From positions 2,496,001 to 2,560,000 of the forward strand of contig CM000151.3 of assembly GCA_000004695.1 (NCBI GenBank): a DNA stretch of 64,000 bases, read 5' to 3'. Below are positions 12,721 through 49,626 of this stretch, piece after piece (within the stretch, counting starts at the first letter, position 1; the number at the start of each line of letters is the position of its first letter). A program made the translations under genes and the position numbers. The DNA comes from Dictyostelium discoideum. Taxonomy: Eukaryota. Below the pieces are notes generated by a model, which worked only from the letters and a program-made list of their open reading frames with translations, was not told the origin of the DNA and ran no database searches.

Positions 12721-13804
12721 TTGATTCTCTGCTATTTGTCCTTTACCATTAACTTTTGCTGGTTTACCCAATGTTGCAAATCCCAATATCGATAATGATC
12801 ACCTAAAAATAAAACTTCATTTGCTAAACCTGCTATATCAATTATTGCCGCTGTACCTAAATTACCAACAATGATACCCCTAAAAATATTAAAAACCAAA
12901 CTCCATTTGCTAAACCTGCTTTATAGATTAACTCAAAAAATTTATTTATTTTTTTATTTGTTTATTTATTTATTTATTTTTTTATTAACCAAAAAAAAAA
13001 GTAAAAAAAAAAAAGAAAAAAAAAAAAAAAGAAAAAAATAAATAAAAAAATGAAATTAAAAATTAGTAAGGGATGTAAAAATTTCAGTGGTGAAAAGTAA
13101 TTTTATGAGGTGCTGGTGTATGTTCGTTGCCTTTTTTTTTATTTTTTTTTACTTTTATTTTTTTATTTCATATAAAAATTAGTTTTGAAAAAAAAAAAGA
13201 AAAAAATAAATTAAAAAAATAATTATTTTATTTCTGTGTGATTATTTTTTTTTTTTTCTTTGTAGAGGGTACAATTTCAAAAATAAATATATTGTTTTTC
13301 TGAGTCCATAAATTTCCTATTACACTAATATTTTTATTTTTTTTTTATCATTATTGTTTTATTTTTTTTATTTTAAGAGTGACCCATTATATTGATTCCT
13401 TTTGAAAACATTTTAATTTATTTATTTATTTGAATTTAAAAAAAAAATTTAAAATATATAGATATTTGGTTAAGAGAATTAAAAAAAAAAAAATTGAAAA
13501 AATTAAAAAAAGTGTTTGGGAATTAAAAAAAAAAATAAAATGGAAAATGAAAAAAAATGAAAAAACGAAAATTAATTTTAATTATTTATTGCTGTAAATA
13601 AAAAATTTATGGAAAAAATAAATATTATAATTCACCTTAAAAAAAAAAAAAAAAAAATTTATGACATTAGTTTTTATGGGTGTATCATGTTTTTTTTTTT
13701 TATTTTTTTTGAATACTGTTAGAATAATTATATAATCTGGTCTATTGATCAAAAAATAAAATAAAAAAAGATAATTATTTTTGATTAATATAAATATGTT
13801 TAAC

Positions 13805-13861
<57 letters not shown>

Positions 13862-13979
13862 AAAGCTTTTTGTTTTATAATAAAAAAAAATAAAATTAAA
13901 TTTTATTTGTTTTTATTTTTTTTTAAAATTGATTAATAATTAAATTACAATTTTAATAATTTTTTAAAAAATTATTTGT

Positions 13980-14741
13980 TTATTCTAAAGCGGTGGCAAT
14001 GTAATCAGCTCTTAATGAATAGACTTTGTTTTCATTCCAAGTGTAGAAAACACAATCAAAACCTTTGGTGGTAATGTTTCTTGGTTGAACACCAATACGA
14101 GTTTGATTGGTAGCATCAGTACAATCGATTTGATCAAAGTTGAGGGCAACCTTTGGGAGAGTAGCAAATTCAAATTGGAATTTAACTGGGACAACAACTT
14201 CACGTTTACCTGAACCGGTATTTAAGGCACAGTTATCGCCAGTGTAAATATCTGCACCAACTTGAGTGACTGAGCTTTGTACTGGTTGAGTGTAGAATTC
14301 ACATCTTAATGAAATGTGGTTATTCCAGGTTAATGGGTGGATAGCAATTGAACGAGCTCTAATTGGAGTATCAAAGAAATGATTAACAACAGTGTTACGA
14401 TCAGTTACACCAGTAATAGCAGCACCATTACGATATTCAGACCAGGTAACATTATCTAATGAATAACGGATTTTGTATGATGTAACCCATTGATCATGAT
14501 CACCACGACCTTGGAGAGCAACACACATAAAAGTACGTGGAACTTCACAACCAGCAACAATGTATTGGTTAGTATCTACGATTGATGAACACCAAGCTTC
14601 TGAACCATCAATAGTATTGGTACCTTTGTTTTTATAGTTTAAAGCAGCATTAAATTGAGTGTGGACACCATTGTAATTGGTTGAGGTTCTTAAATGACAT
14701 TGAGCATTTCCGAGAAGTGTAACTAAACCTTGGGTAGACAT
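13980..14741 (-). CDS. Discoidin I (253 aa; N-terminal discoidin/F5-8 type C domain plus C-terminal H-type lectin domain), intact, intronless
   Basis: Protein [29 protein letters not shown]...[10 protein letters not shown] recognised as discoidin I from memory. Complete ATG..TAA. Confidence 0.9.
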
Positions 14742-15464: not shown

Positions 15465-16226
15465 TTATTCTAAAGCAGTAGCAATGTAATCAGCTCTTAA
15501 TGAATAGACTTTGTTAGCATTCCAAGTGTAGAAAACACAATCGAAACCTTTGGTGGTAATGTTTCTTGGTTGAACACCAATACGAGTTTGATTGGTAGCA
15601 TCAGTACAATCGATTTGATCAAAGTTGAGGGCAACCTTTGGGAGAGTAGCAAATTCAAATTGGAATTTAACTGGGACAACAACTTCACGTTTACCTGAAC
15701 CGGTATTTAAGGCACAGTTATCGCCAGTGTAAATATCTGCACCAACTTGAGTGACTGAGCTTTGTACTGGTTGAGTGTAGAATTCACATCTTAATGAAAT
15801 GTGGTTATTCCAGGTTAATGGGTGGATAGCAATTGAACGAGCTCTAATTGGAGTATCAAAGAAATGATTAACAACAGTGTTACGATCAGTTACACCAGTA
15901 ATAGCAGCACCATTACGATATTCAGACCAGGTAACATTATCTAATGAATAACGGATTTTGTATGATGTAACCCATTGATCATGATCACCACGACCTTGGA
16001 GAGCAACACACATAAAAGTACGTGGAACTTCACAACCAGCAACAATGTATTGGTTGGTATCTACGATTGATGAACACCAAGCTTCTGAACCATCAATAGT
16101 ATTGGTACCTTTGTTTTTATAGTTTAAAACAGCATTAAATTGAGTGTGGACATCATTGTAATTGGTTGAGGTTCTTAAATGACATTGAGCATTTGAGATA
16201 AGTTGAACTAAACCTTGGGTAGACAT
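15465..16226 (-). CDS. Discoidin I, second tandem copy (253 aa, 7 amino-acid differences from the first copy), intact
   Basis: Near-identical ORF 1485 bp upstream of the first. The 5' and 3' flanks are also conserved, so the duplication unit is ~1.5 kb. Confidence 0.9.
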
Positions 16227-21023: not shown

Positions 21024-21800
21024 ATGAATTTTTTCGATAAACTTAAAGGTGAACTCAACTTAGGCGAAGAAGAGTTAAATAAAAAAACTATTCAAATAAG
21101 GTTATTCTACCCACATACCTTGGAATTAAATAGTAATTCAACAAAATTAATAGATAATTTCATAGTTAATGGTACTCTTAACATTGTCAGAAGACAAAAA
21201 GGTATAACAGTATTTGGTAGAATACTAAAAGAAAAATTCACATTATTACACGAGTGTTACAGCACTTTCAAGTATGAAGATTTCCCACTGCAAAAATTCA
21301 TACTTTACACCCCAGGATATCACTATGTCCACTTTTACACATTTACAAAAAACATAATAAAAAAAATAAACAATCAAATGGTAAAAGAAAACTGGGGATT
21401 GGAGCCATTACTAATAGATGAATGCAACATAGTAATGCTACCAGATGTGATTAGATATTCATGCATTCTATTATTTAACAAAGAAGATGATATCTCAATC
21501 ATTAAAACAAACATTGATGCTATAAAAGGTAGTAAGCATCCAATAAGAGCCTTCATCTCTGAATATAACAATAAAGAAATAAGAGATGTTAGAAAAAAAA
21601 AAAACACAAGTAATAAAAATCAACAACCAACAACTACAAATACAACTAAACCAATACCATCAACTCCACCAACAACTAATGCATCAACAACCACACCAAT
21701 AACAACCACACCAATAACAACCACACAAACAACAACCACACCAACAACAATCACACATCAATTACCAACAAGCAATACAACAATCAACAACCTAAACAAA

Positions 21801-21835
<35 letters not shown>

Positions 21836-21905
21836 AAAACCTATCAATAAAATTACTACAAGCAATGGTACCAAGTTTCCAATTGCCAGTAGTATTAGAA
21901 AATAA
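21024..21905 (+). CDS. TRE3 ORF1 (293 aa, Thr-rich C-terminus)
   Basis: First ORF of the element. Confidence 0.7.
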
Positions 21906-24640
21906 TGGAACAATTAAAATTATTACTATGGAACTGCAGAGGTAATCAATCAACCAACGCTAAGAATAAAACAGAAGAAACGATAAAAAGAATTGGCACT
22001 CAATTAACACTCCTAACTGAAACTAATTTCAATGGATTCAACCACCACAAAACAATGTTCAACTTTGAAAGAATAGATCATGGTTCAGGTAAAGGAACTG
22101 GCATAGCAATAGAAAATAGAGATACAAGAAAAGGCCACATATCAATAAACTTCAAAGACGATGATGGTAGAATACTATCAATTAAATACAATTCCTTTAA
22201 TTCTATCAACATATTATTGATCAATGCTCCAGCGACTATATCTGAAAGAAACACCTTCATAATCAACTCAAAATCACTGTTTAAAAAATATAATTCAATC
22301 AACCATCAAATAATAGCAGGCGACTTCAATAACAACCACGATTGCAACAGCTTCTTCGGTACTGAATTACGTAAAATAATAGACCAAGACATGCTACTAG
22401 ATACTGGTATTGAAGAAAACACTCCAACATTTCCAAGATCAATGAAGAGACTAGATAGAATCTACTGTCATCCAACACTACTAAACCAAAATTCAAAACT
22501 GGTAGTCCACAACACAGTATTCAACAAATCAGATCACTTTCCCATCACAATCACAATACAAACCAACAGAGAAACAACAACAACAACAACAACAACCAAA
22601 CTAGAAAGACTCCCTTGGACATTATGTAAAGAAATTCTCAACAACAAACATATACATGATGGGTTATCAGAATTAATCAGTAAGAACAAAGATAAGATCA
22701 AATCAGTGGAGGAATGGACGAAATTTAAAAATAATGTCATCAGAGATTATTTAAAAAAAGAACAAAACAAAATAAAGAAAGAAAAGAACAAAAGAAAATA
22801 CGTAATCCACAAATTACTTGGAAATAGTGATATCATTCCAAAGATGAGAAAAGAACTCAATGAAGAAATAAGTAGAATATTAGAAGAAGAAAGAAAGGTA
22901 AAAGCATGGGATATAAAATTAAAACTCCACCTGCATCAAGAAACACCAAGCAAATACCTCACAAGTATCCTTAAATCCAGAGCCAAAGATAAATCAATAT
23001 TCCAAATAAAAGATAAAGATAATAAGACCATATCAGATAAAGAGAACATAGCAAAAAGATTTGTTGAATTCTATCAAGATCAATATGAAGAGAAAGAAGA
23101 TAACGAAGAAACCCACAAGAAGTTATTAGAAAAATGGGAAGTAGACGTTGATTTAATCAAGAAACTCGAGATAGACAGACCGATAAGAATACATGAAGTG
23201 ACCAAAGCAATCAAAACTTCAAGTATCCACAAATCTCCAGGTTTAGACGGTATCAATGCACTATTCTACAAGTACCACATCAACTCAATAGCAAGAATAT
23301 TGACTATAGCTTTCAACGACCTCCTCACAAATAAGAAAGAAATCCCCACAAAATTCAAAGAAGGAGTAATAACAACAATATTCAAAAAAGGAGATGAACT
23401 AAACATTTCAAATAGAAGACCAATCACCCTTCTCAATACAGATTACAAAATTTTAAGCAAAATTCTCAACAGTAGATTATTAGATATCACCAGTAAAATT
23501 ATCAACAAATTTCAAAACGGCTTTGTTCCAAACAGGTTCATCCAAGACAATATTCAGATCATGAAGGAAGTAATAGAAATAAGTAACAAAAGAAAGAACA
23601 ATACACTCATTACCTTTTACGATTTTAACAAAGCATTCGATTCAATCAGCCACAAGAGTATCACAAGAACATTAGAGCATATTGGTATCCCCCCAAAATT
23701 CACAGCGATCCTACTAAACCTACTCAAAGATACTAAAAACAAAATAAAGATCAACGACTTTTTAGTCAATGGAATAACAATCAGAACAGGAACAAAACAA
23801 GGAGACCCAATATCACCAACAATCTTTGCTCTAGTTTTAGAACCACTTCTAATAGATATCATCAATGATAATACAATCAAAGGCTTCACTCTACCAAATT
23901 CCAAATCATTAAAACTCACTGCATTTGCTGACGACATAGCAACCTTTACAAACTCCACAGAAGAACTAATGAAAATTAATACTAAAATCCAAAAGTACTG
24001 CTCAGCAACGTCATCATCGTTAAACAAAGAGAAAACAGTAATGATAGCAATAGGAGATAAACCACACGATCTACCATTCCAAGAGAGTACAGTCCCAGAA
24101 AGATATCTTGGCCTCAATTTCACCAAAACAGGTTTAAATTCAAAATACAACACTTTAATCCAAGAAATGAAAAACAATCTAATCAAATGGAAATCACAAG
24201 CAATAACGATGAAGGCAAAGATGACAATTCTCAAAACATACGTTCTATCCAAATTAACATACCATCAATACATGGATAATCTAAATGAAGAACAAATTGA
24301 GGAAATCAATAACATGACCAGATGGTTCTTATTCTCCTCAGTTAAGAATACATATACAGAAGAGAGAAAATACAAAACTATGATGAAAATAGACAGAGCA
24401 TATGCAGATTGGAAAGAAGGAGGCATAAAATTATGGGATATAGAACTAAGACATATAGCATTCAAAATCTGGTACATGAACAGGCTACTCCATAACAACT
24501 ACAACAACAACAACAATACCTTACAAGAATGGTACATGGAGCAATTAAGTAGAAAAAAGCCCACACTTCAACCCTCAACGATATGTGCAGACACTGGGGT
24601 GTATTCAGAGTCAAATTTTACCAAAACCATCCAAAGATAA
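21905..24640 (+). CDS. TRE3 ORF2: apurinic/apyrimidinic-type endonuclease plus reverse transcriptase (911 aa to the first stop)
   Basis: EEP/APE-like N-terminus, RT motifs 1-7 including FADD at the YXDD position. Confidence 0.8.
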   Translation: MEQLKLLLWNCRGNQSTNAKNKTEETIKRIGTQLTLLTETNFNGFNHHKTMFNFERIDHGSGKGTGIAIENRDTRKGHISINFKDDDGRILSIKYNSFNSINILLINAPATISERNTFIINSKSLFKKYNSINHQIIAGDFNNNHDCNSFFGTELRKIIDQDMLLDTGIEENTPTFPRSMKRLDRIYCHPTLLNQNSKLVVHNTVFNKSDHFPITITIQTNRETTTTTTTTKLERLPWTLCKEILNNKHIHDGLSELISKNKDKIKSVEEWTKFKNNVIRDYLKKEQNKIKKEKNKRKYVIHKLLGNSDIIPKMRKELNEEISRILEEERKVKAWDIKLKLHLHQETPSKYLTSILKSRAKDKSIFQIKDKDNKTISDKENIAKRFVEFYQDQYEEKEDNEETHKKLLEKWEVDVDLIKKLEIDRPIRIHEVTKAIKTSSIHKSPGLDGINALFYKYHINSIARILTIAFNDLLTNKKEIPTKFKEGVITTIFKKGDELNISNRRPITLLNTDYKILSKILNSRLLDITSKIINKFQNGFVPNRFIQDNIQIMKEVIEISNKRKNNTLITFYDFNKAFDSISHKSITRTLEHIGIPPKFTAILLNLLKDTKNKIKINDFLVNGITIRTGTKQGDPISPTIFALVLEPLLIDIINDNTIKGFTLPNSKSLKLTAFADDIATFTNSTEELMKINTKIQKYCSATSSSLNKEKTVMIAIGDKPHDLPFQESTVPERYLGLNFTKTGLNSKYNTLIQEMKNNLIKWKSQAITMKAKMTILKTYVLSKLTYHQYMDNLNEEQIEEINNMTRWFLFSSVKNTYTEERKYKTMMKIDRAYADWKEGGIKLWDIELRHIAFKIWYMNRLLHNNYNNNNNTLQEWYMEQLSRKKPTLQPSTICADTGVYSESNFTKTIQR

Positions 24641-25350
24641 ATGAACTTCCAGACTGTATAAGAAACGACAATGATGAACCACTAAAACTGAAAGAAATTT
24701 ACGAACTCATGATCAAAGACAGACACCCAACACCAAGAAGAACAGAATGGCAGAAGTTATGGGCGGTGAGATACAACACAGCAATACCCAAAGTATTCAT
24801 AAACATCAACAGCATTTCTCACCAAAAAGGTAGAAACACCCTCTTCAGATTCTTCTCAAGATCACTTCCAGGTATCAACCACGAAAGAGACACCAGATGC
24901 AAGATCTGTGGCCACCTATTCAGAGACCCTTATTCTCACCTCTTCACTCTATGCCAAGATATCCTAGATATTGAAAAAACCATCATATCAACAGTTAACA
25001 AATTATCATTCATCAAAATCCAAAGATGGTCAATGGATACCTTAGACATATCAAAATACAACAGAACTGAGAGAATCTTCCCCAATCTCATAGGAATAAT
25101 AGCACACCAATTATGGAAGATAATCTGTCACAAATTGTTCAACACTGATGAAAGCAAACCAGAGCCAAAATTCGAGCAAAAGGTCATAGAAACAGAATTA
25201 CTAAATCTCATCGAAACTGAAAAATTCATCACACTAAAGAAAATCAAACACGACGAAGCAATACTAAAAAACACCAATCAAGATCTTCACAAATACAAAT
25301 TCAACAAAGCCTGGCAAACCCCAGCAGCTCCGAACCCTCTTCCAATTTAA
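24583..25350 (+). CDS. TRE3 ORF2 C-terminal Cys/His (zinc-finger-like) domain in a different frame from 21905-24640. Apparent frameshift within 24583-24640, so this copy may be defective or the shift is programmed or a sequencing error
   Basis: CKICGH...H...C motif typical of non-LTR ORF2 tails. Overlaps the end of the RT frame. Confidence 0.5.
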   Translation: MCRHWGVFRVKFYQNHPKINELPDCIRNDNDEPLKLKEIYELMIKDRHPTPRRTEWQKLWAVRYNTAIPKVFININSISHQKGRNTLFRFFSRSLPGINHERDTRCKICGHLFRDPYSHLFTLCQDILDIEKTIISTVNKLSFIKIQRWSMDTLDISKYNRTERIFPNLIGIIAHQLWKIICHKLFNTDESKPEPKFEQKVIETELLNLIETEKFITLKKIKHDEAILKNTNQDLHKYKFNKAWQTPAAPNPLPI

Positions 25351-32419: not shown

Positions 32420-32698
32420 TTAATTAAATTCTACTTCTTGAATGAATGGAACTTCATTTGGTTTATAAAAATTTGATGGTATATTGAAAGGAATATTTCT
32501 CACCCAATCAGGTAAAGTGAAATCATTTAATGATGGATTTGGATTCAATAATAAAACACCAATTTCAAAATTTGAAATTGATACTTGACTTTCATTCTTT
32601 TGGAAAGCACCCCAAGCTGATAAAGAAAAATTATGACTACCAGTATATACCCAATCATATTTTATTCTATCATCATTATTATTATAATTATTATTATT

Positions 32699-32738
<40 letters not shown>

Positions 32739-33216
32739 AAGGTAGTTGTACCAACCATAATTTTACTATGATGAACTAAATCTTTACGATAAAAATATTT
32801 TGAAGAAAAATGACTAAAAGATGAATTATCATTATCATAGTTTTTAACTGATAAAAATAAACAACCTGAAGTCATAGCTCTAATTGGATTACCTCTTATC
32901 CAATTTTTAGTTGGAAAAATAATATGTAATGGCTTGTCACTCAATACACTTTTATTTCTTTTTTGATTATTTGAATTTTGATTTTGATTATTGCATAGTA
33001 CGTAATTTGTAAAAACATTTCTAAAATCACTTCTATCACCACCTAAAGATGATGTTTGACAATATAAATCCTTTACATATTTATATGGAGGTGATTGATT
33101 TTCATTTACTACTGTATTATTTTCTTGATCCTTGTAATATTGATTTAAATATTTTTGTAATGTATAAATACCACTACCAAAACTTGAACTTGTTTTATCA
33201 ACATTTTCATCATTAC

Positions 33217-33279
<63 letters not shown>

Positions 33280-33509
33280 TTGATTTTTCTAATTTATAAA
33301 TTCCTGGGATTGATGTTATTAATTTAACTGCACAATTTGAATAATCAAAATCATCCAAAAAAGCAAACTCTTCAACACCAGAACTTTTTAAAAAGTGTTT
33401 TAAACCATTTAAAAATTCAATACCCAATTCATTATTTGAATTTGAATTTGAATTATTTGTTGCAGTTGCAGTTGTAGTAGTAGTAGTAGTTGTTGTTGTG
33501 GTTGTTGTT

Positions 33510-33586
<77 letters not shown>

Positions 33587-34075
33587 GTTTGGTTGTTTTT
33601 TTAAAAAATCTTGAAACCAAATTGTTTGACCCCAACCTGAATAATCAAATTTTGTTGGATTTGAAGATGGTATTACAACTCTAACTAAATCAACAAACGT
33701 GAAAATCATTAATTTTGAATGATATAGTTGATAATTAAATAATGGTGGATTAATAACTGTAATGAAATCATTAATAGCATGGCGACCTTTTGTTTCAGGT
33801 TTACTATAATTCTTTACAAATGTAAATTTAACTTTGTTACCATGTTCTTTTCGTATCTCTTTTATTACCCATTCTGGATCAAGTGCAAATCCACTTACCA
33901 ATGCTCCAACCATTCCCGGTTTCTTTATTAAATCTTTAAATGATAATGTATTAATTGTACAAATTCTAGGTTGTTCATTTGTTGAATTTAAATAAAATGA
34001 ATTTGGTTTAAATTTATAATTCTCATTTTTATCAATTAAAACTCCACCAATAATTGTACCACTCTCTTTTTTATC

Positions 34076-34110
<35 letters not shown>

Positions 34111-34115
34111 TATTA

Positions 34116-34197
<82 letters not shown>

Positions 34198-34624
34198 AAT
34201 TATTGTTAAAATTATTATATGATGATGATGATTTTTTATTTGAATAAAATTGATTTCTATCAATTGAATTTTCAAGTAAAGGTGGTGAAGAATTATTTTT
34301 ATTTCTAATCATTGATAATATATGTGAACGATTATTATTATTATTATTTCCGATAGTAGTTGTACCTAAAGAAAATGCTATTGCTTTTTGAAGATCTTCA
34401 TCTTCTGTATCATCATCATCACTAATTTCAATAACTTCTTTTCTATTATTAATATTAAATTTACTTGCTTTTGATTTAAATCTTTTACATGATTCAAATC
34501 TACTATTATGTCTGAATTTTCCTTTATTCCTCTCTGAATCTGAATCAGATTCTGATTCCGTTTCTGAATCAGTATCAGATATTATTTCTTGAATATCATT
34601 TTCTTCTTGGTTATGATTTAACAT
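32420..34624 (-). CDS. tdp1: Tyrosyl-DNA phosphodiesterase 1 (TDP1) homolog, 734 aa, with N-terminal ubiquitin-interacting-motif-like EDEDLQKAIAFSL and long poly-N/poly-T inserts
   Basis: Two HKN motifs of the PLD superfamily in TDP1 context: YHSKLMIFTFVDLVRVVIPSSNP and YTGSHNFSLSAWG. Confidence 0.75.
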
Positions 34625-35334: not shown

Positions 35335-36417
35335 ATGATTAAAAAATATTTTTTTATTTTAATAATTTTAATAATAATTTTAATTATTAATTGCCAAGAA
35401 TTATGTGATTGTAATTTAGATTGTGATGATTGTGATCAATGTACAACAGATTTATGTATTCAAGGATGTTGCACCCATATTGAAATAAATTGTGATGATG
35501 GTAATCATTGTACTACTGATGGTTGTTCAATTGAAACTGGATGTACACATATCAATATTGAATGTAATGATGGTGATGCTTGTACCATTGATGGTTGTTC
35601 AAAATCTAGTGGTTGTTTTTATTCCCCAATTTCATGTGATGATGGTAATGCTTGTACCAATGATGGTTGTTTAAAAGAAACTGGTTGTTGTACCCATACA
35701 AATGTAGAATGTTGTGATGGTAATGCTTGTACTGTTGATTCTTGTTTACCTTCAACTGGTGAATGTTGTTATTCTCCAATTTCTTGTGATGATATTAATC
35801 AATGTACCACTGATACTTGTTCAAATTCAACTGGTGCTTGTTGTAATTTACCAATTTCATGTGATGATAATAATCAATGTACCACTGATTCATGTTTAGA
35901 GTCTACTGGTTGTTGTCATAATGAAATAACTTGTGATGATGGTAATCAATGTACTTTTGATTCTTGTTCGCCTTCAACTGGCTGTTGTCATAATCAAATA
36001 ACCTGTGATGATGGTAATCAATGTACTACCGATTCTTGTTCAATTGAAACTGGTTGTTGTAATTCTCCAATTTCTTGTGACGATGGTAATCAATGTACTA
36101 CCGATTCTTGTTCCCCTTCAACTGGTTGTTGTCATAATCAAATTAGTTGTGATGATGGTAATCAATGTACTGCAGATTCTTGTTCAATGGAAACTGGTTG
36201 TTGTCATTCACCAATTTCATGTGATGATGGTAATGCTTGCACTATAGATTCTTGTTCTCCAACAACTGGTTGTTGTCATTCTCCAATTTCTTGTGATGAT
36301 GGTAATGATTGTACAATTGATTCTTGCTCTCCAAAAACTGGTTGTTGTCACACCCCTTTGGAATTAACAGAACCAATTCAATTACATTATGTATATCAAG
36401 ATATCAATGATTATTAA
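35335..36417 (+). CDS. Secreted cysteine-rich protein made of ~13 tandem 24-aa Dicty_CTDC repeats (C.DGNQCTTDSCS..TGCC), the repeat type found in extracellular matrix (prestalk) proteins
   Basis: Signal peptide. 72-bp periodicity at DNA level. Repeat consensus matches the Dictyostelium CTDC repeat. Confidence 0.75.
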   Translation: MIKKYFFILIILIIILIINCQELCDCNLDCDDCDQCTTDLCIQGCCTHIEINCDDGNHCTTDGCSIETGCTHINIECNDGDACTIDGCSKSSGCFYSPISCDDGNACTNDGCLKETGCCTHTNVECCDGNACTVDSCLPSTGECCYSPISCDDINQCTTDTCSNSTGACCNLPISCDDNNQCTTDSCLESTGCCHNEITCDDGNQCTFDSCSPSTGCCHNQITCDDGNQCTTDSCSIETGCCNSPISCDDGNQCTTDSCSPSTGCCHNQISCDDGNQCTADSCSMETGCCHSPISCDDGNACTIDSCSPTTGCCHSPISCDDGNDCTIDSCSPKTGCCHTPLELTEPIQLHYVYQDINDY

Positions 36418-36894: not shown

Positions 36895-38357
36895 AAATTG
36901 ATATATCACAACCAAATTCATTAGTACATAAAGTTCATGTTGATTTAGATTTAAATTGGAGTTCAGGAGGTGAAACATCATTTGAAATTCAAGAGAAATT
37001 AGGAGAAGGATCATTTGGATCAGTTTATAGAGCAATTCATAAATCATCAAATACATCGATTGCAATTAAAGAATTTGAAATTTTCGAAGCAAATGATGTT
37101 GAACCAATTAGTAAAGAGATTCAAATTCTAAAGAAATGTAATAATCCATATGTTGTTAGTTATTTTGGATCGATAATGTTAAAGAATAAATATTGGATCT
37201 TGATGGATTATTGTTCACTTTCCTCTTTTAATGATATTATGCAATCGATTGGTAAAACTTTTAAAGAGAAAGAGATCTCATTGATTCTTCAACAATCATT
37301 ATTGGGTTTGGTTTATTTACATTCTAAACAAATCATACATCGTGATATTAAATCGGCAAATATTCTATTGGATGAAACTGGTCAAGTGAAAATCGCAGAT
37401 TTTGGCGTCTCTCAACAAATCCAATCCACTTTTTCCAAAGGTTCAATCGCAGGTACGCCCTATTGGATGGCACCTGAAATTCTAAATCAAACCGATTACA
37501 ATAATAAAATCGATGTTTGGTCATTAGGTATAGTTGCCATTGAATTGGCCGATGGTGAACCACCACTTTCCGAGGTTAATCCAATGAGAGCCATGTATAT
37601 GATTGGTAGAAGACCTCCACCAACTTTTAAAGATCCAAAGAAATGGTCACCAGAGTTTGTATCATTCGTTGATAAATGTTTAACTAAAGATATCAATGAA
37701 AGATGGTCACCTTCTCAATTATTAGATCATCCTTTTATTAAAAGTGCAAAACCAGATGCATTAAAAGAATTAACTCAAATGGCTATAAAATTAAAATCAA
37801 AAAAAAGAAAATCAATTGGTCCTTCAGTTTCACCAAAACAACAACCAAATGATAATAATAATAATAATAATAATAATAAACCACAATTTTTAAGTAAATT
37901 ATTAAATAATAACTCAAATAGTAGTAATGATATTGGTGAAACTACTTCTGGTTCTGTAATTTATAAACCAAATGTTTTCAGTGGTTCAATTGATACTGGT
38001 TCAGTCGTAATTCATAATACAATCACTAGTAATAACAATGACTCTGGTTCAGTAGTTTTAAATTCAAATACTGTAATTAATAGATCAAAACCATTACCAC
38101 CACCACCTTCTTATGAATCTGTAATTTTAAATGATAAATTAAAACAACAACAACAACAACAACAACAAAGCAATCAACAAACAACAACAACTACTACTAA
38201 ACAAAATACTATTAAAAATAAATTCAATACAATTAGCAATACTATTAAATGTAATACTATTTTAGTTCAAGATAAAACTTTAGAAATTATTCAAAAGACG
38301 CCAATGAAAAATTTAGATGAAAGAAATCAAAAGTATGTTTTATTAAACTATATATAA
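36895..38357 (+). CDS. Ste20-family protein kinase, exon 2 of 2: kinase domain and S/N/T-rich C-terminal tail (total 499 aa)
   Basis: LGEGSFGSVYRA, AIK, HRDIKSANILL, DFGVS, GTPYWMAPE, DVWSLGI motifs. Open frame extends upstream of the track ORF start (37176) to the acceptor at 36893-36894. Confidence 0.75.
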
Positions 38358-43801: not shown

Positions 43802-45126
43802 TTAATTATAAAAATTAAATAAATAATCAATAGTTAAAGAATATTGTTTTAATTGTTGATAAATATGATGAATTAAATTTGGAATTTTTGATTCAAAATA
43901 TAATAAGATAGAATCTTGACTTGATAAATACTCTAAAACTTCTAAATTTGGACGTGATTGTTGATTTTGAAATTGTTGAATGATTGCTCTTTTAATTTCT
44001 TTATGATGAGCAATTGTATTTCTAATGAATCTAATTAAATCTCTAACTTTATCATATTGATATGAAATGGTTATTTTTGAACCTTTTGTTGGTGTTAAAA
44101 GATTGGTTACATCAATTAAATGATTCCAAGAATCATTTAAAAATGGTTCATCATTATCATCACAATGATTTAATTGTTTTGTTAACTTTGAATTGTAACT
44201 TGAGTTTGAAGGTTCTTTAATTAAATTTAAAGCTGCATCAATGAATTGTATTTTCTTTTCTAAATTCCAAAACAATGGATGATTTAAAACATTTTGGATG
44301 GTTGGTCTAATTGATTCATCTTTTGAAATCATTGATTTAATTAAAGTACAAGCCAATTGATTTGAATTCAATGGAGTTAGATTCATTTTATTTGAAATTA
44401 TATTAACTATACGAAATAATTTATCATTACCAAATGGATGTTGACCATTTGTTAAAAGATAAAATAAAATACAACCCAATGAAAATATATCGACAGATTT
44501 TGTCATTCTTTTACTTTGTAATACTTCAAATGGATGATAACCACCTTGACCTGTTGGTATATTACTTGTAAATGAATATGATGATTCAACTTCCATTTTA
44601 CTTAATCCAAGATCTGATATAATGAATGAGTTATTTGAACTATTATTATTATTACTAGTTTTACCAATTAATGTTAAAATATTACGTGGATTTAAATCAT
44701 TATGAACAATATCATGAGAATGAAGGAATTGAATACCAAAGAGAATATCTTTTGCAAGTTCAATAATTGATTTGTTTGATGAAATAACAAAATCATTTAA
44801 TTTACCACTTTCAACTAAATTCTGTAATGATCCATCACATAATGTTAAACCTAAATATACATGAAGTTTATCTTCCTCTTTATCAATATATCTAATCATA
44901 TTTGAACAATTTTTACTTGTTAATGAAATTAATGCTTCAACTTCTTTATTGATAAGTGGATTGAATGCTTTTTGCATTTGTTTAATTGCAACTGGTATTT
45001 TATCACTCCATAAACCTTTAAATACTAATGTACCATTTGAACCTCTACCTAATATATTTGATTCATTTCTATTAAATTTAAATTTACCAATTGATACAAA
45101 ATCTTCATCTTGAATTATATTATTTA

Positions 45127-45198
<72 letters not shown>

Positions 45199-47927
45199 CA
45201 TTGATTAAATTTTGTTTTTTATTATTTTCAATTATTAATTTTTTAGTTTGTTCATTTTTGAATTGTGATGTAATTACTTTTGCTGGTGTTGTTGTTGTTG
45301 GTGTTGTTGATGTTGTTATTGTTGATTTTGATTTTTTATTATCCTTTTTAACAGAAATCCAAGATGGTTCACCAATTCCACCCCATTTCATATTACTATT
45401 AATTTGTTTTTTATTAATATTAATCTCTTCATATTCATCAATTGTTTCCATTTCTTTTTTCTTTTGATTTTCTTCTTCTAATTGAATTTCAATAATTGAT
45501 TGAATTTTCTTTACAGAATCAATTGGAGTTTCAATTGATGATTTTAATAAAACTACATTATCATTTTTTGGTTCTAAAATTGGTGTTATTGATTCTAATT
45601 GAATAGTTAATGATGATGATGGTTGTTGTTGCTGTTGTTTTAATAATTGAAGTGGTGGTGGTTGTTGTTGTTGTTGATTTAATAATGGTAATTGAAAATT
45701 TTGAATTTCTTTAATTTCTAATTTTTTATTAATTTCATCAATTTTTAATTGATTTTGTTGAATATTTTTATTAATTTCATCAATTTCTTGAATACTTTTT
45801 TGTTTAATTTCATCAATTTCTTTTTGTTTTAATAATTCAAATTCTTTTTCTTTTTGTTTTGATAATTCTTTTTCTTTTTCTTTTTGTTTTTGTTTTTCAA
45901 TTAATTTTTGTTTTTCATCATCTTGAAGTTTTTTATATAATCTTTTTCTTTCCAATTTTTGTAGTTTCTTTTCTCTTTTTTTCATTTGTTCTTCAAGTTG
46001 TTTTTCTTTTTGTTTTTCAAGTTTAATTAAGAGTAAGTCTTGTTTTTCTTTTAATCTTTTCTCTCTTTTTAATCTTTTTTTAATTTTTTCTTGTTGTTTT
46101 TGTTTCTTTCTTTTTTCTTCAAGTTCCAACTCTTCCAATAGTTCAGATTCAGCGATTCTAGATTGATTTTCTCTCTTTGAAAAAGTTAATAGCTTTCTTG
46201 CCATTTGTTTTAATTGTTGATCATTGAAAACATTTGAATTTTCAAAACAAGTTTCTAAAGCCGACAAATAATCTTGATCAGAATTTGAAAAGTTTGAAGT
46301 GAAACCAAAGAAATTAACACTACTTGAATCATCATCTTCAAAATTAATTAAATCATCTTCAAAATTATTTCTAATTATATCTGAACAACTTAAAAAAGTT
46401 TTAAAAATTAATGGTACTGGTATGATTGATAATAATAATCTTGGATTTAAATCAAAGAATTTATAAAACATTGGACGTTCTTTTAAATTTAAAATATCAC
46501 TACCAATATAAGCAAAGAAAACCAATGGAATACTTTGTTTACTCCATCTATTTGGTGTTGAAACCATTGATTCGCAAAGCATAAAAGTTTTAAAACTATC
46601 ATTTTGAACTAATAATGATTCTATCATTTGAATTTCTTCAATTAATGTTGAAAGTATTAAAATTCTTTGAGAAACACCCATATGATTACAAACTAAATTT
46701 GATAATAAAGCAATAATAGTTGTTGACGGTGCATTATATTTTAATAATCTTGAAATCATTGAATCAACTTTATAATTTGAAAATTCTATTAAACTTTCTT
46801 CTTTAATACTATTTTCATCTTCATTATGATCACCATCATTATTATTATTATTATTATTGTTACAACCAGAATGATGATCATCATCATCATCATAATCATC
46901 ATAATCATCATCATCATGATTATTATTATTAATTGATCTAATTGATATATGATATCGTTCTTTTAAAATTAAATCTTCAATTTCATTAATTTCAGTATTA
47001 AAATGAATTAAATTTTTTGTAAATAAATTAATATAATCTTTTTGTTTATCAATTGGAATTTGATGATTATTAAAATCAAAAGAACAATTTAAAATTCTAA
47101 AATGATTTTCAATTGGATTTAGCGAAGATCTTGATTCAATACCCCATAAACTATTTCTTGATGGTATTGAAGTTATAAATGTTGGGAATTTTGAAATTAA
47201 AAGTTTTGCAACATTGATACTAAAGTTTGTAGTTGTAAACTCTAATAATCTAACGAGATCAATCGATAAATTTGAATTGGTTGATGTTTTAGTTCTTTTA
47301 TAATTTTCATTTGCATCTGATGATGGATGAATTGAAAAATTTAATTTATTATTAACCTTATCCAATTTGAAAAATTCAATTAAAAATTTGGAAGCAATTG
47401 AAAATGAATCAAAATTACAAATTAATCTCCAAACATTCTCCAATTGTTCATAACTATTTGAATCGATTAATAATGTTGAAATGAATAAATCTGAGCAATC
47501 ACTTTCAATTATACCAACCAATGATAACTGGTCACTTTTATAACGATAAATGTAATCTAATTTCTCCGATTTCCAAACGCCATTACAAACGATTCTTTTA
47601 TAAACTTCATTATTTAAATGCAATGCTTTCTTGAATTGTTGATATCTTTGTTGATAGGTTTTTTGTTTCCATTGCTCGATTGGTTTAATAAGATTACAAT
47701 AACTACGTACTTGAAATGAAATACCTCTAACAATAAATTCAATAATATCCATTGATAAATAATCTTTAAAACAATTTAAAAAATTAAAAACAATTGATGA
47801 ATTTTGATTCTTTTCTTCGCTACCATTATTATCTTTTTCAAAATAATCACAAATTACATGTTTATTAATTTCTTTTGAATTTTTTAAAATTTCTAAATAT
47901 TCTTTTAAATTTTTATTTAAAAATTTA
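43802..47927 (-). CDS. IRE1-like protein: C-terminal Ser/Thr kinase domain followed by a KEN (kinase-extension nuclease) RNase domain. Preceded by a long Lys/Glu coiled-coil and an unrelated N-terminal region. No signal peptide or lumenal sensor domain. Exon 2 of 2, or a single exon starting at ATG 47752
   Basis: [49 protein letters not shown] kinase motifs. KEN-like tail PLFW...[19 protein letters not shown]. Dictyostelium has an IRE1-like (irl) gene family (established). Confidence 0.8.
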
Positions 47928-48006
47928 CTTTTTTTTTTTTAATTTGTTTAATTATATTATATTATTAAATTAAAAAAGTTATAAAAAAATTATATATTTT
48001 TATTAC

Positions 48007-48227
48007 CTTTCATTATAAAAAATTATTTTAAATTGATCTAATGAATTTAAATTTTCATTTTCGTCATATTTTAATTTACTACATAAATTAATTAAACATT
48101 CAAGTACAGTTGAATGATAATGTTGTTTTTTAAATGGGAAAATAAAAATATTTTTTTGAATATGATGATGAACTTTAATTAAGTCATATTCATAATCAAT
48201 TATTAAATTATTTAATAATGAATTCAT
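48007..48227 (-). CDS. Probable exon 1 of the IRE1-like gene (MNSLLNNLIIDYEYDLIKVHHH...FYNE + 2 nt)
   Basis: Donor GTAATA at 48006. 79-bp AT-rich intron. Acceptor AAG at 47929-47928. In-frame continuation through non-repetitive coding-looking sequence upstream of ATG 47752. Confidence 0.4.
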
Positions 48228-48711: not shown

Positions 48712-49626
48712 TTATAAATTAATTTTATTAAAATCAATTGATAATAATTTACAAGTTTTATTCCATAAATTAATAGTATTATTTGGATTTGAAGCAAATT
48801 TTGAAGGTTCAGTAATTTTTGTTAAAGTAAAGTATTTACCTTTTTCATTTAATTTATTTAAAGTTAAATTTGCTAAAGCACTACCCATATCATCTAATTT
48901 ATTACCTTTGAAATAAACCAACACTGGTAAAACTAAATTATTTGCAAACCAACCATGCTTTTCGAATAAATGAGTTACAGCGAAACCAGGATGTAGTGAA
49001 TTCACTTTAATATCACTACCCTTTTCAATTAATTTATTTTGTAACTCTTTAGAGAATAAAATATTATATAATTTAGATTTGGAATATTCATAATTACTAC
49101 TTGAGAAATCAGTATTGTTTTTATCTTCTTTGCCTAAAGTTTGCTCAAAATCCAATTGTGTCACTCTGTCATGCATTTTCGATGCGACGAATACTATATT
49201 ACCACCATGCTTTGATTGATTTAATTTTGGTAATAATAAAAGTGTTAATAATGATGGACCCAAATGATTTACACCCATTGTCGATTCGTAACCGTCTGAT
49301 GTGGTTTTAAATTCCGTATTGATTAAACCTGCATTGTTAACTAATATATCCAATGGTTCATTCAATTCATTAAATTCTTTAACAAATTCTTTAATTGATT
49401 CAAATGATGATAAATCCATTTTCATTAATTTTATATCAACATTTGCTTTAATTTCTTTTAATTCTTTTACAACTTTTTCACCTTTTTCAATATTTCTAAC
49501 TGGTAATATAAATTTTAAATTATCTTCTAAAATTAAATAATTTAATGAATTACGACCAATACCATCTGTACCACCTGAAAATATTATAACTTTTTTATCT
49601 AATAATGATGATGATGATGATTCCAT
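48712..49626 (-). CDS. Short-chain dehydrogenase/reductase (SDR) family oxidoreductase, 304 aa
   Basis: TGGTDGIG cofactor motif, NNAG, YEYSKSK catalytic Tyr/Lys. Confidence 0.8.
   Translation of the reverse strand: MESSSSSLLDKKVIIFSGGTDGIGRNSLNYLILEDNLKFILPVRNIEKGEKVVKELKEIKANVDIKLMKMDLSSFESIKEFVKEFNELNEPLDILVNNAGLINTEFKTTSDGYESTMGVNHLGPSLLTLLLLPKLNQSKHGGNIVFVASKMHDRVTQLDFEQTLGKEDKNNTDFSSSNYEYSKSKLYNILFSKELQNKLIEKGSDIKVNSLHPGFAVTHLFEKHGWFANNLVLPVLVYFKGNKLDDMGSALANLTLNKLNEKGKYFTLTKITEPSKFASNPNNTINLWNKTCKLLSIDFNKINL

Follow-up and report, generated by a model that had tools for sequence, protein, structure and literature searches.

What does an IRE1-type kinase and endoribonuclease respond to when it is carried by a protein that has neither a membrane anchor nor a lumenal sensor of unfolded proteins? 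The question is raised by a gene on the minus strand of a 64,000-nucleotide (nt) stretch of Dictyostelium discoideum DNA (GenBank assembly GCA_000004695.1, contig CM000151.3, positions 2,496,001 to 2,560,000), here called the window, whose product of 1448 amino acids (aa) ends in a kinase and a KEN endoribonuclease domain. IRE1 is the most conserved sensor of unfolded proteins, and its kinase-KEN module also underlies RNase L, an antiviral effector of vertebrates; Dictyostelium has six soluble copies of that module. The gene is a genuine member of the dictyostelid IRE-like (irl) expansion, and we somewhat favor the view that its product is a soluble cytosolic endoribonuclease of the irl branch, whose oligomerization, assisted by nucleotide or by autophosphorylation, would be gated by an orphan domain at the N-terminus.

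The identity of the protein is carried by its C-terminal part. Pfam finds there a kinase domain (Pkinase, E 6e-34) followed by a Ribonuc_2-5A/KEN domain (E 1.7e-10). When the two together are compared with the sequences in PDB by phmmer, yeast Ire1 is the best match (E 1e-48), human and mouse IRE1alpha are found at E 1e-45, and generic kinases are weaker, at E 1e-17 or worse; the identity to the IRE1 kinase-KEN is about 30%. An AlphaFold2 (AF2) model of the module, made with a 12-sequence alignment, has a predicted local distance difference test score (pLDDT) of 77 and a predicted template modeling score (pTM) of 0.79, and the best 50 matches that Foldseek returns for it in PDB are all IRE1 kinase-RNase structures (TM 0.74-0.83). 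Together these searches show that the C-terminal 435 aa are predicted to adopt the IRE1 kinase-KEN fold, in agreement with an earlier reading of the letters (the sequence-only reading), which had aligned the last 450 aa or so with the IRE1 kinase and KEN domains.

The catalytic residues of both domains, whose conservation that reading had left to be checked, are all retained. In the residue-level phmmer alignment Y1363, R1376, N1377, and H1381 of the KEN domain correspond to Y1043, R1056, N1057, and H1061 of yeast Ire1, and the kinase has the Gly-loop (GRGSNGT), the VAIK lysine (Lys1056), the alphaC Glu, D1151, N1156, and D1179. A pseudo-RNase brought about by loss of the KEN residues was considered and rejected, all four being present. 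The KEN motif RNxxxHH is kept in all but one of the aligned members from D. discoideum, D. purpureum, and Acytostelium, the exception being an Acytostelium protein. The ratio of nonsynonymous to synonymous substitution rates (dN/dS) relative to D. citrinum is 0.18 for the kinase and 0.18 for KEN. A poly-Asn insert lies between the catalytic loop and the DLG motif of the kinase; it is ~9 aa long here (aa ~1165-1173; window ~44630-44660, minus strand), ~25 aa in a D. discoideum paralog and ~80 aa in the D. citrinum ortholog, and yeast Ire1 has an insert at the same site, between its catalytic loop and DFG.

The catalytic loop of the kinase is atypical. It reads H1149-N-D1151-L-N-P-R-N1156 and is followed by D1179-L-G, so that HRD is replaced by HND, the Lys that Ser/Thr kinases have at +2 from the Asp by Asn, and DFG by DLG. 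In the family alignment, HNDLNPRN and SD[LM]GLSK are common to the window protein, its D. discoideum paralog, D. purpureum, and three Acytostelium proteins, whereas IRE1 proper and the ankyrin-kinase-KEN proteins retain HRD[LI]KPxN and DFG. Because the same motifs recur across the dictyostelid clade, the changes are not erosion. These two motifs without a membrane anchor are the signature of the irl clade; the window protein has them, and it belongs to the described family of dictyBase irl genes with which the sequence-only reading had proposed a comparison. The Arg at +4 in DLNPRN is also found in the tyrosine-kinase motif DLAARN. In agreement with this, the PKA T201 position was noted to carry neither Ser nor Thr in the IRE members other than IreA, which might act on tyrosine (Goldberg et al., 2006; PMC1420674). 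The loop of the clade, with its DLG, suggests an altered kinase chemistry, either tyrosine or dual specificity or a role mainly as a nucleotide switch.

The protein was also read originally as having no signal peptide, transmembrane segment, or lumenal domain, and this is borne out. Kyte-Doolittle and Hessa scans of the 1448-aa protein reveal no hydrophobic h-region at the N-terminus and no signal peptide or transmembrane segment, and a Pfam scan of the protein gives no match to a lumenal domain. The same scan gives values below 0 for both the signal peptide and the transmembrane segment of a fungal Ire1 (P0002) used as the positive control. These results agree with the published statement that, apart from IreA, no member of the IRE family seems to be membrane-bound (Goldberg et al., 2006; PMC1420674).

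In place of a lumenal sensor, the protein begins with a region of its own. Pfam recognizes no domain in the N-terminal regions of the window protein, of its paralog, or of either D. purpureum relative, and an N-terminal profile run against the PDB sequences gives nothing beyond a chance match (E 0.14). An exhaustive phmmer search with aa 75-662 against 1.84 billion cluster representatives returned a sole match, the 1442-aa D. discoideum paralog KAM9971852 (P0011), at E 6e-6, the two being collinear over 500 aa with 26% identity; a weak but collinear similarity (pairwise E 8e-5) links the region to the N-terminus of the D. purpureum protein P0001. Two other searches were less informative: one with the full-length protein gave 3 matches, swamped by low-complexity words, and a profile search with the N-terminal alignment, trimmed of low complexity, found no match and did not recover the input proteins themselves. 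The conserved cores of the region lie at about aa 61-100, 211-260, 291-340, and 371-400. Its dN/dS is 0.05-0.25 in four ortholog comparisons (0.22-0.25 against D. citrinum), a range matching that of the kinase and KEN. These results show the N-terminal ~660 aa to be a real and constrained domain, predicted all-alpha and restricted to Dictyostelium, namely D. discoideum, its close relatives, and D. purpureum. The sequence-only reading was right that no known domain is present. Its estimate of ~400 aa fits the family-conserved core, which lies in the first ~400 aa, but falls short of the whole non-kinase region, which is ~660 aa long and includes an insert at aa 407-443 and a further ~220 aa.

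Two ideas about this domain were tried and given up. An ankyrin-repeat origin was suspected because the conserved core is helix-turn-helix-like and an Acytostelium relative bears ankyrin repeats; hhalign comparison with the N-termini of ankyrin-bearing relatives gave it a probability of <1%. Self-comparison by hhalign found no internal repeats in the domain. Arms-race-type positive selection was likewise dismissed, the dN/dS among orthologs being 0.09-0.25. A separate observation concerns D. purpureum P0001, which has at aa ~462-475 a CxC-x8-CxH motif (CDCQEYKKHQTCIH) that resembles a SWIM zinc finger; the motif has no Pfam match and no conserved counterpart in the window protein.

A charged segment and a low-complexity linker connect the N-terminal domain to the kinase. 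Since 69% of aa 663-815 are Lys, Glu, Gln, Arg, or Asp and none is Pro or Gly, this segment, which we call the K/E helix, is very probably helical. The occupancy of its heptad a/d positions by hydrophobic residues is mostly 0.25-0.5 and reaches 0.6-0.75 solely at aa 781-815. Its constraint among orthologs is relaxed (dN/dS 0.4-0.8), and the segment is only ~50 aa long in the D. discoideum paralog and ~20 aa in D. purpureum. The poly-Q/P/T/N linker (aa 816-1013) of ~200 aa separates it from the kinase. A coiled coil of ~200 aa directly before the kinase, as originally described, is therefore not what is found: the helix has 153 aa and the linker stands in between. The accompanying suggestion that the protein could oligomerize through the coiled coil finds little support, in view of the weak a/d occupancy, the relaxed constraint, the 200 aa that separate the helix from the kinase, and its shrinkage in relatives. 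The K/E helix may be a single charged helix, a spacer, or a weak element of self-association; it is probably not what chiefly drives activation.

The extent of the protein depends on the gene model. The minus strand has an uninterrupted open reading frame (ORF) of 1316 codons at 43802..47752, and an upstream ORF of 74 codons (48003..48227, minus strand) splices in frame onto it through a GT..AG intron at 48006..47928. For comparison, syntenic loci were fetched by way of the neighboring acetyltransferase gene from D. citrinum (L002), from two D. cf. discoideum isolates (L003 and L004), and from another D. discoideum strain (L005), the D. discoideum paralog (L001) being the fifth locus. In all five, the annotated product length is obtained with a single GT..AG intron, of phase 2, placed after 71-75 codons. 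The intron lengths across the compared loci are 79/95/96/98/169 nt and the intron sequence is not conserved, while the flanking coding parts stay in frame. Relative to D. citrinum, dN/dS is 0.20 in exon 1 (aa 1-73) and 0.18 in aa 75-132, upstream of Met133, and the N-terminal alignment with the paralog and D. purpureum P0001 is continuous across the exon junction. The shared position, the variable length, the constraint on the flanks, and the alignment across the junction support the intron, and the predicted two-exon model of 1448 aa is therefore well supported. The range of 1316-1448 aa given by the sequence-only reading is thus correct at both ends, as ORF and as spliced product. Its intron was placed exactly, although the extra 5' exon brings a gain of 132 aa rather than the 74 aa it had expected.

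In strain ACTFIW the window gene and its paralog share a contig, with ~56 kb between them, and they differ to unequal degrees along their length. The identity between the two proteins is 27.6% in the N-terminal region, where synonymous substitutions are saturated, 61% in KEN, and 86.5% in the kinase. At the nucleotide level the identity rises at aa ~1010 from ~60-70% to 96-98%, and it is 87-97% through much of the kinase; over the same stretch the window gene is only 86-92% identical to its own D. citrinum ortholog, below the paralog value. The kinase N-lobe has 5 differences in 168 nt (window 44270-45109, minus strand, against L001 ~13099-14000). The simplest reading of this pattern would be that ectopic gene conversion homogenizes the kinase modules while the N-terminal modules remain distinct.

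More distant relatives extend the picture. Neither of two D. purpureum proteins, P0001 and P0007, shows synteny with the window gene. P0007 (DICPUDRAFT_92689), annotated with 249 aa, covers only the 3' end of a full-length irl gene that the annotation misses (L007 6678-10750, plus strand, GL871219.1). This gene has a complete kinase and no assembly gap, and its N-terminal region and that of P0001 share 38% identity over 724 aa. In Acytostelium subglobosum, P0006 (SAMD00019534_036070) has the HNDLNPRN signature of the irl clade together with ankyrin repeats N-terminal to the kinase-KEN, an RNase L-like architecture outside animals. Because this relative bears ankyrin repeats before the same kinase-KEN, interchangeable soluble N-terminal modules would be a trait of the family.

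How does the window protein compare with the systems already described? The Dictyostelium IRE family was reported to have expanded to seven members, all with RNase(L) domains and only IreA membrane-bound (Goldberg et al., 2006; PMC1420674, PLoS Genet 2:e38). The soluble kinase-KEN architecture of the irl family has thus been known since 2006. Kinase-KEN modules fused to varied soluble domains, as in the ankyrin-kinase-KEN and kinase-KEN-CCCH proteins of protists and invertebrates, have also been described (Anantharaman et al., 2013; Biol Direct 8:15), and a 2018 review (PMC6025073) treats IreA as the single IRE1 sensor ortholog and leaves the other family members undiscussed. A literature search by irl gene names and locus tags found no paper characterizing any irl gene. 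What is added here is modest: the tyrosine-kinase-like loop throughout the clade, the constrained Dictyostelium-restricted N-terminal domain, the doubt about the coiled coil, and the signal of gene conversion. With the irl kinases (irlA-F) the window protein shares the kinase and RNase(L)/KEN domains, the clade signature, and the lack of a membrane anchor, and with KAM9971852 also the orphan N-terminal domain, although that domain is just 27% identical to the paralog's and the K/E helix is unusually long in the window protein. With IRE1, Ire1p, and IreA it shares a kinase directly joined to KEN and the KEN Tyr/Arg/Asn/His, and IRE1 proteins are its best matches in sequence and structure. It differs from them in having no signal peptide, lumenal domain, or transmembrane segment and a cytosolic N-terminal extension of ~1000 aa, as well as HNDLNPRN in place of HRDLKPxN and DLG in place of DFG.

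The likeness to RNase L that the sequence-only reading had drawn holds in part. Both are soluble proteins in which a non-membrane regulatory region at the N-terminus precedes a kinase-like domain and KEN, and the presumed common logic is ligand-induced dimerization. Unlike RNase L, the window protein has no detectable ankyrin repeats (no Ank match in Pfam at E up to 1) and keeps the kinase catalytic triad, so that it is no obvious pseudokinase, although its loop has HND and an Asn in place of the catalytic-loop Lys. Among the PDB matches, RNase L does not appear in the best 60 of 110 by sequence (E up to 1e-10) for the kinase-KEN, in any of the 13 (E up to 10) for KEN alone, or in the best 50 by structure. 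The comparison therefore stands for the logic, a soluble sensor joined to a kinase-KEN, while sequence and fold are IRE1-like. Other soluble kinase-KEN proteins are also modular fusions: P0006 and P0003 of Acytostelium bear ankyrin repeats, and P0010 ends in a CCCH-like tail. The N-terminal module of the window protein is a different, all-alpha domain restricted to Dictyostelium.

The composite RNase site of KEN in IRE1 and RNase L arises when the kinases dimerize back to back, a process promoted by nucleotide occupancy. By analogy, nucleotide binding, and possibly autophosphorylation, would drive the back-to-back dimerization or oligomerization of the irl kinase-KEN. The RNase site so assembled would be composite and metal-independent, and would cleave RNA of the cytosol to leave 2',3'-cyclic phosphate ends. 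Activation would be gated by the binding of a ligand or protein partner to the orphan N-terminal domain, and not by unfolded proteins of the endoplasmic reticulum (ER), with the K/E helix and the low-complexity linker acting as a flexible spacer and at most as an accessory element of self-association. Several points weigh against this proposal. The KEN domain is divergent, reaching IRE1 among the PDB sequences at just E 0.002 when searched alone, and in the AF2 model a 40-residue insert of low confidence adjoins its catalytic Tyr. The changes of the catalytic-loop Lys to Asn, of HRD to HND, and of DFG to DLG could weaken or abolish phosphotransfer. The AF2 model of the N-terminal region, made from 3 sequences, is all-helical but of low confidence (pLDDT 36), and the sensor role of that domain is one that we infer purely from its position and constraint.

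Other explanations of the same gene have to be weighed. A conventional IRE1 of the ER membrane, whose signal peptide or transmembrane segment was missed, would have its best candidate in the most hydrophobic 19-mer of the protein, aa 571-589, with a Kyte-Doolittle maximum of 1.82. This segment was rejected as a transmembrane helix: it contains two Pro and one Lys, its summed free energy on the Hessa scale, the minimum for the protein, is +4.6 kcal/mol against <0 in the fungal Ire1 control, and it is not hydrophobic in the paralog. Together with the N-terminus, which has no h-region, and the agreement of Goldberg et al. (2006; PMC1420674), this effectively excludes a membrane-bound IRE1 and leaves it next to no probability. 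A decaying duplicate or an annotation artefact, such as a fusion of unrelated ORFs, might be suspected from the long low-complexity tracts, but the frame runs unbroken for 4.3 kb in an AT-rich genome, intact syntenic orthologs are present in four other assemblies, and dN/dS is 0.05-0.25 in all folded parts; this explanation too is effectively excluded.

The two remaining rivals accept the domains and differ in what they are for. The protein could be a modulator of IreA with little or no RNase function of its own, which would form heterodimers with the kinase-KEN of IreA or of other irl proteins and so tune or titrate the unfolded-protein response. The kinase-KEN fold is indeed that of IRE1, seven family members coexist in one cell (PMC1420674), and the ER-stress response of Dictyostelium is only partly IreA-dependent, with no XBP1/HAC1 target known (PMC6025073). 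However, an identity of just ~30% to the IRE1 kinase-KEN puts the compatibility of the interfaces in doubt, the protein has no membrane tether, and the KEN catalytic tetrad is kept under purifying selection, which argues for catalysis of its own, so that we regard a modulator as unlikely. No greater weight is given to the view that the protein is primarily a signaling kinase, possibly of tyrosine or dual specificity, with KEN as a structural or RNA-binding appendage. Its Lys/Asp/Asp triad is intact, the Arg at +4 of DLNPRN is tyrosine-kinase-like, the PKA T201 position lacks a Ser/Thr (Goldberg et al., 2006; PMC1420674), and the kinase is the best-conserved part, with 86% identity between paralogs and apparent homogenization by gene conversion. 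Against it, the clade retains all four catalytic residues of KEN, at a dN/dS of 0.18, and the Acytostelium member without the motif is evidence that these residues can be lost once their function is dispensable.

If the window protein is instead, as we favor, an active and regulated cytosolic RNase, it would show how the kinase-KEN module is rewired to new inputs and might account for that share of the amoeba's stress response which does not depend on IreA. A wider and more doubtful possibility, put forward tentatively, is that the six soluble irl proteins form a cytosolic array of endoribonucleases responsive to stress or pathogens, an amoebal analog of RNase L, in which the anciently diverged orphan N-termini would each sense a different cue, gene conversion would keep the kinase-KEN uniform, and the tyrosine-kinase-like loop would provide a distinct activation chemistry.

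Coordinates of the irl gene, its parts, and its neighbors in the window (position 1 is the first nucleotide of the window)
Feature	Position	Strand	Remarks
Whole gene	48227..43802	-	two exons, 1448-aa product, stop codon 43804..43802
Exon 1	48007..48227	-	aa 1-73 and 2 nt of codon 74; dN/dS 0.20 against D. citrinum; alignable to the N-termini of the paralog and D. purpureum
Intron	47928..48006	-	phase 2, 79 nt, GT..AG; same position, variable length in orthologs and paralog
Exon 2	47927..43802	-	rest of the coding sequence
Family-conserved N-terminal all-alpha region, exon-2 part, aa 74-406	46931..47927	-	dN/dS 0.09-0.22
Asn/Asp/His low-complexity insert, aa 407-443	46820..46930	-	follows the family-conserved core
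Second N-terminal part, aa 444-662	46163..46819	-	predicted helical; includes aa 571-589; dN/dS 0.05-0.25
K/E/Q-rich segment, very probably helical, aa 663-815	45704..46162	-	153 aa; weak heptad except ~aa 781-815; dN/dS 0.4-0.8
Low-complexity linker, aa 816-1013	45110..45703	-	poly-Q/P, poly-T, poly-N; dN/dS 0.6-1.8
IRE1-type protein kinase domain, aa 1014-1293	44270..45109	-	Pfam, PDB phmmer, family alignment, AF2 and Foldseek
KEN endoribonuclease domain, aa 1294-1448	43805..44269	-	Y1363, R1376, N1377, H1381; Pfam, PDB phmmer, AF2 and Foldseek
Flanking gene DDB_G0273331/DDB_G0273859	42856..43512		exact AX4 protein match
Flanking gene, SDR family protein	48712..49626		exact AX4 protein match
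Flanking gene DDB_G0273113/DDB_G0273851	50637..51389		exact AX4 protein match

The window is strongly AT-rich, with a GC content of ~0.2-0.25 in coding and ~0.1 in intergenic sequence. In three look-ups the flanking ORFs matched proteins of D. discoideum AX4 exactly (EAL70620, EAL70618, and EAL70616), each bearing two locus tags, and the window therefore lies within the duplicated part of AX4 chromosome 2. That strain carries the irl gene in two identical copies. It stands between the genes for EAL70620 and EAL70618, and by the numbering of these neighbors its own record should be EAL70619. It is probably the irlB of UniProt/dictyBase, whose two copies (irlB-1/irlB-2) fall in this duplicated segment. 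Dictyostelium is haploid and the gene genetically tractable, so that a knockout is feasible, although the two copies complicate it in AX4.

Elsewhere in the window there is a tandem pair of genes for 253-aa discoidin-type lectins, with F5/8 type C and H-type lectin domains (13980-14741 and 15465-16226, both on the minus strand). ORFs of a non-LTR retrotransposon occupy 21024-25350 (plus strand), the one of 911 aa at 21905-24640 having an endonuclease/exonuclease/phosphatase domain and a reverse transcriptase. They are followed by a tyrosyl-DNA phosphodiesterase homolog (32420-34624, minus strand), a protein with 12 Dicty CTDC repeats (35335-36417, plus strand), and an unrelated Ser/Thr kinase (37176-38357, plus strand) that is ~24% identical to the irl kinase.

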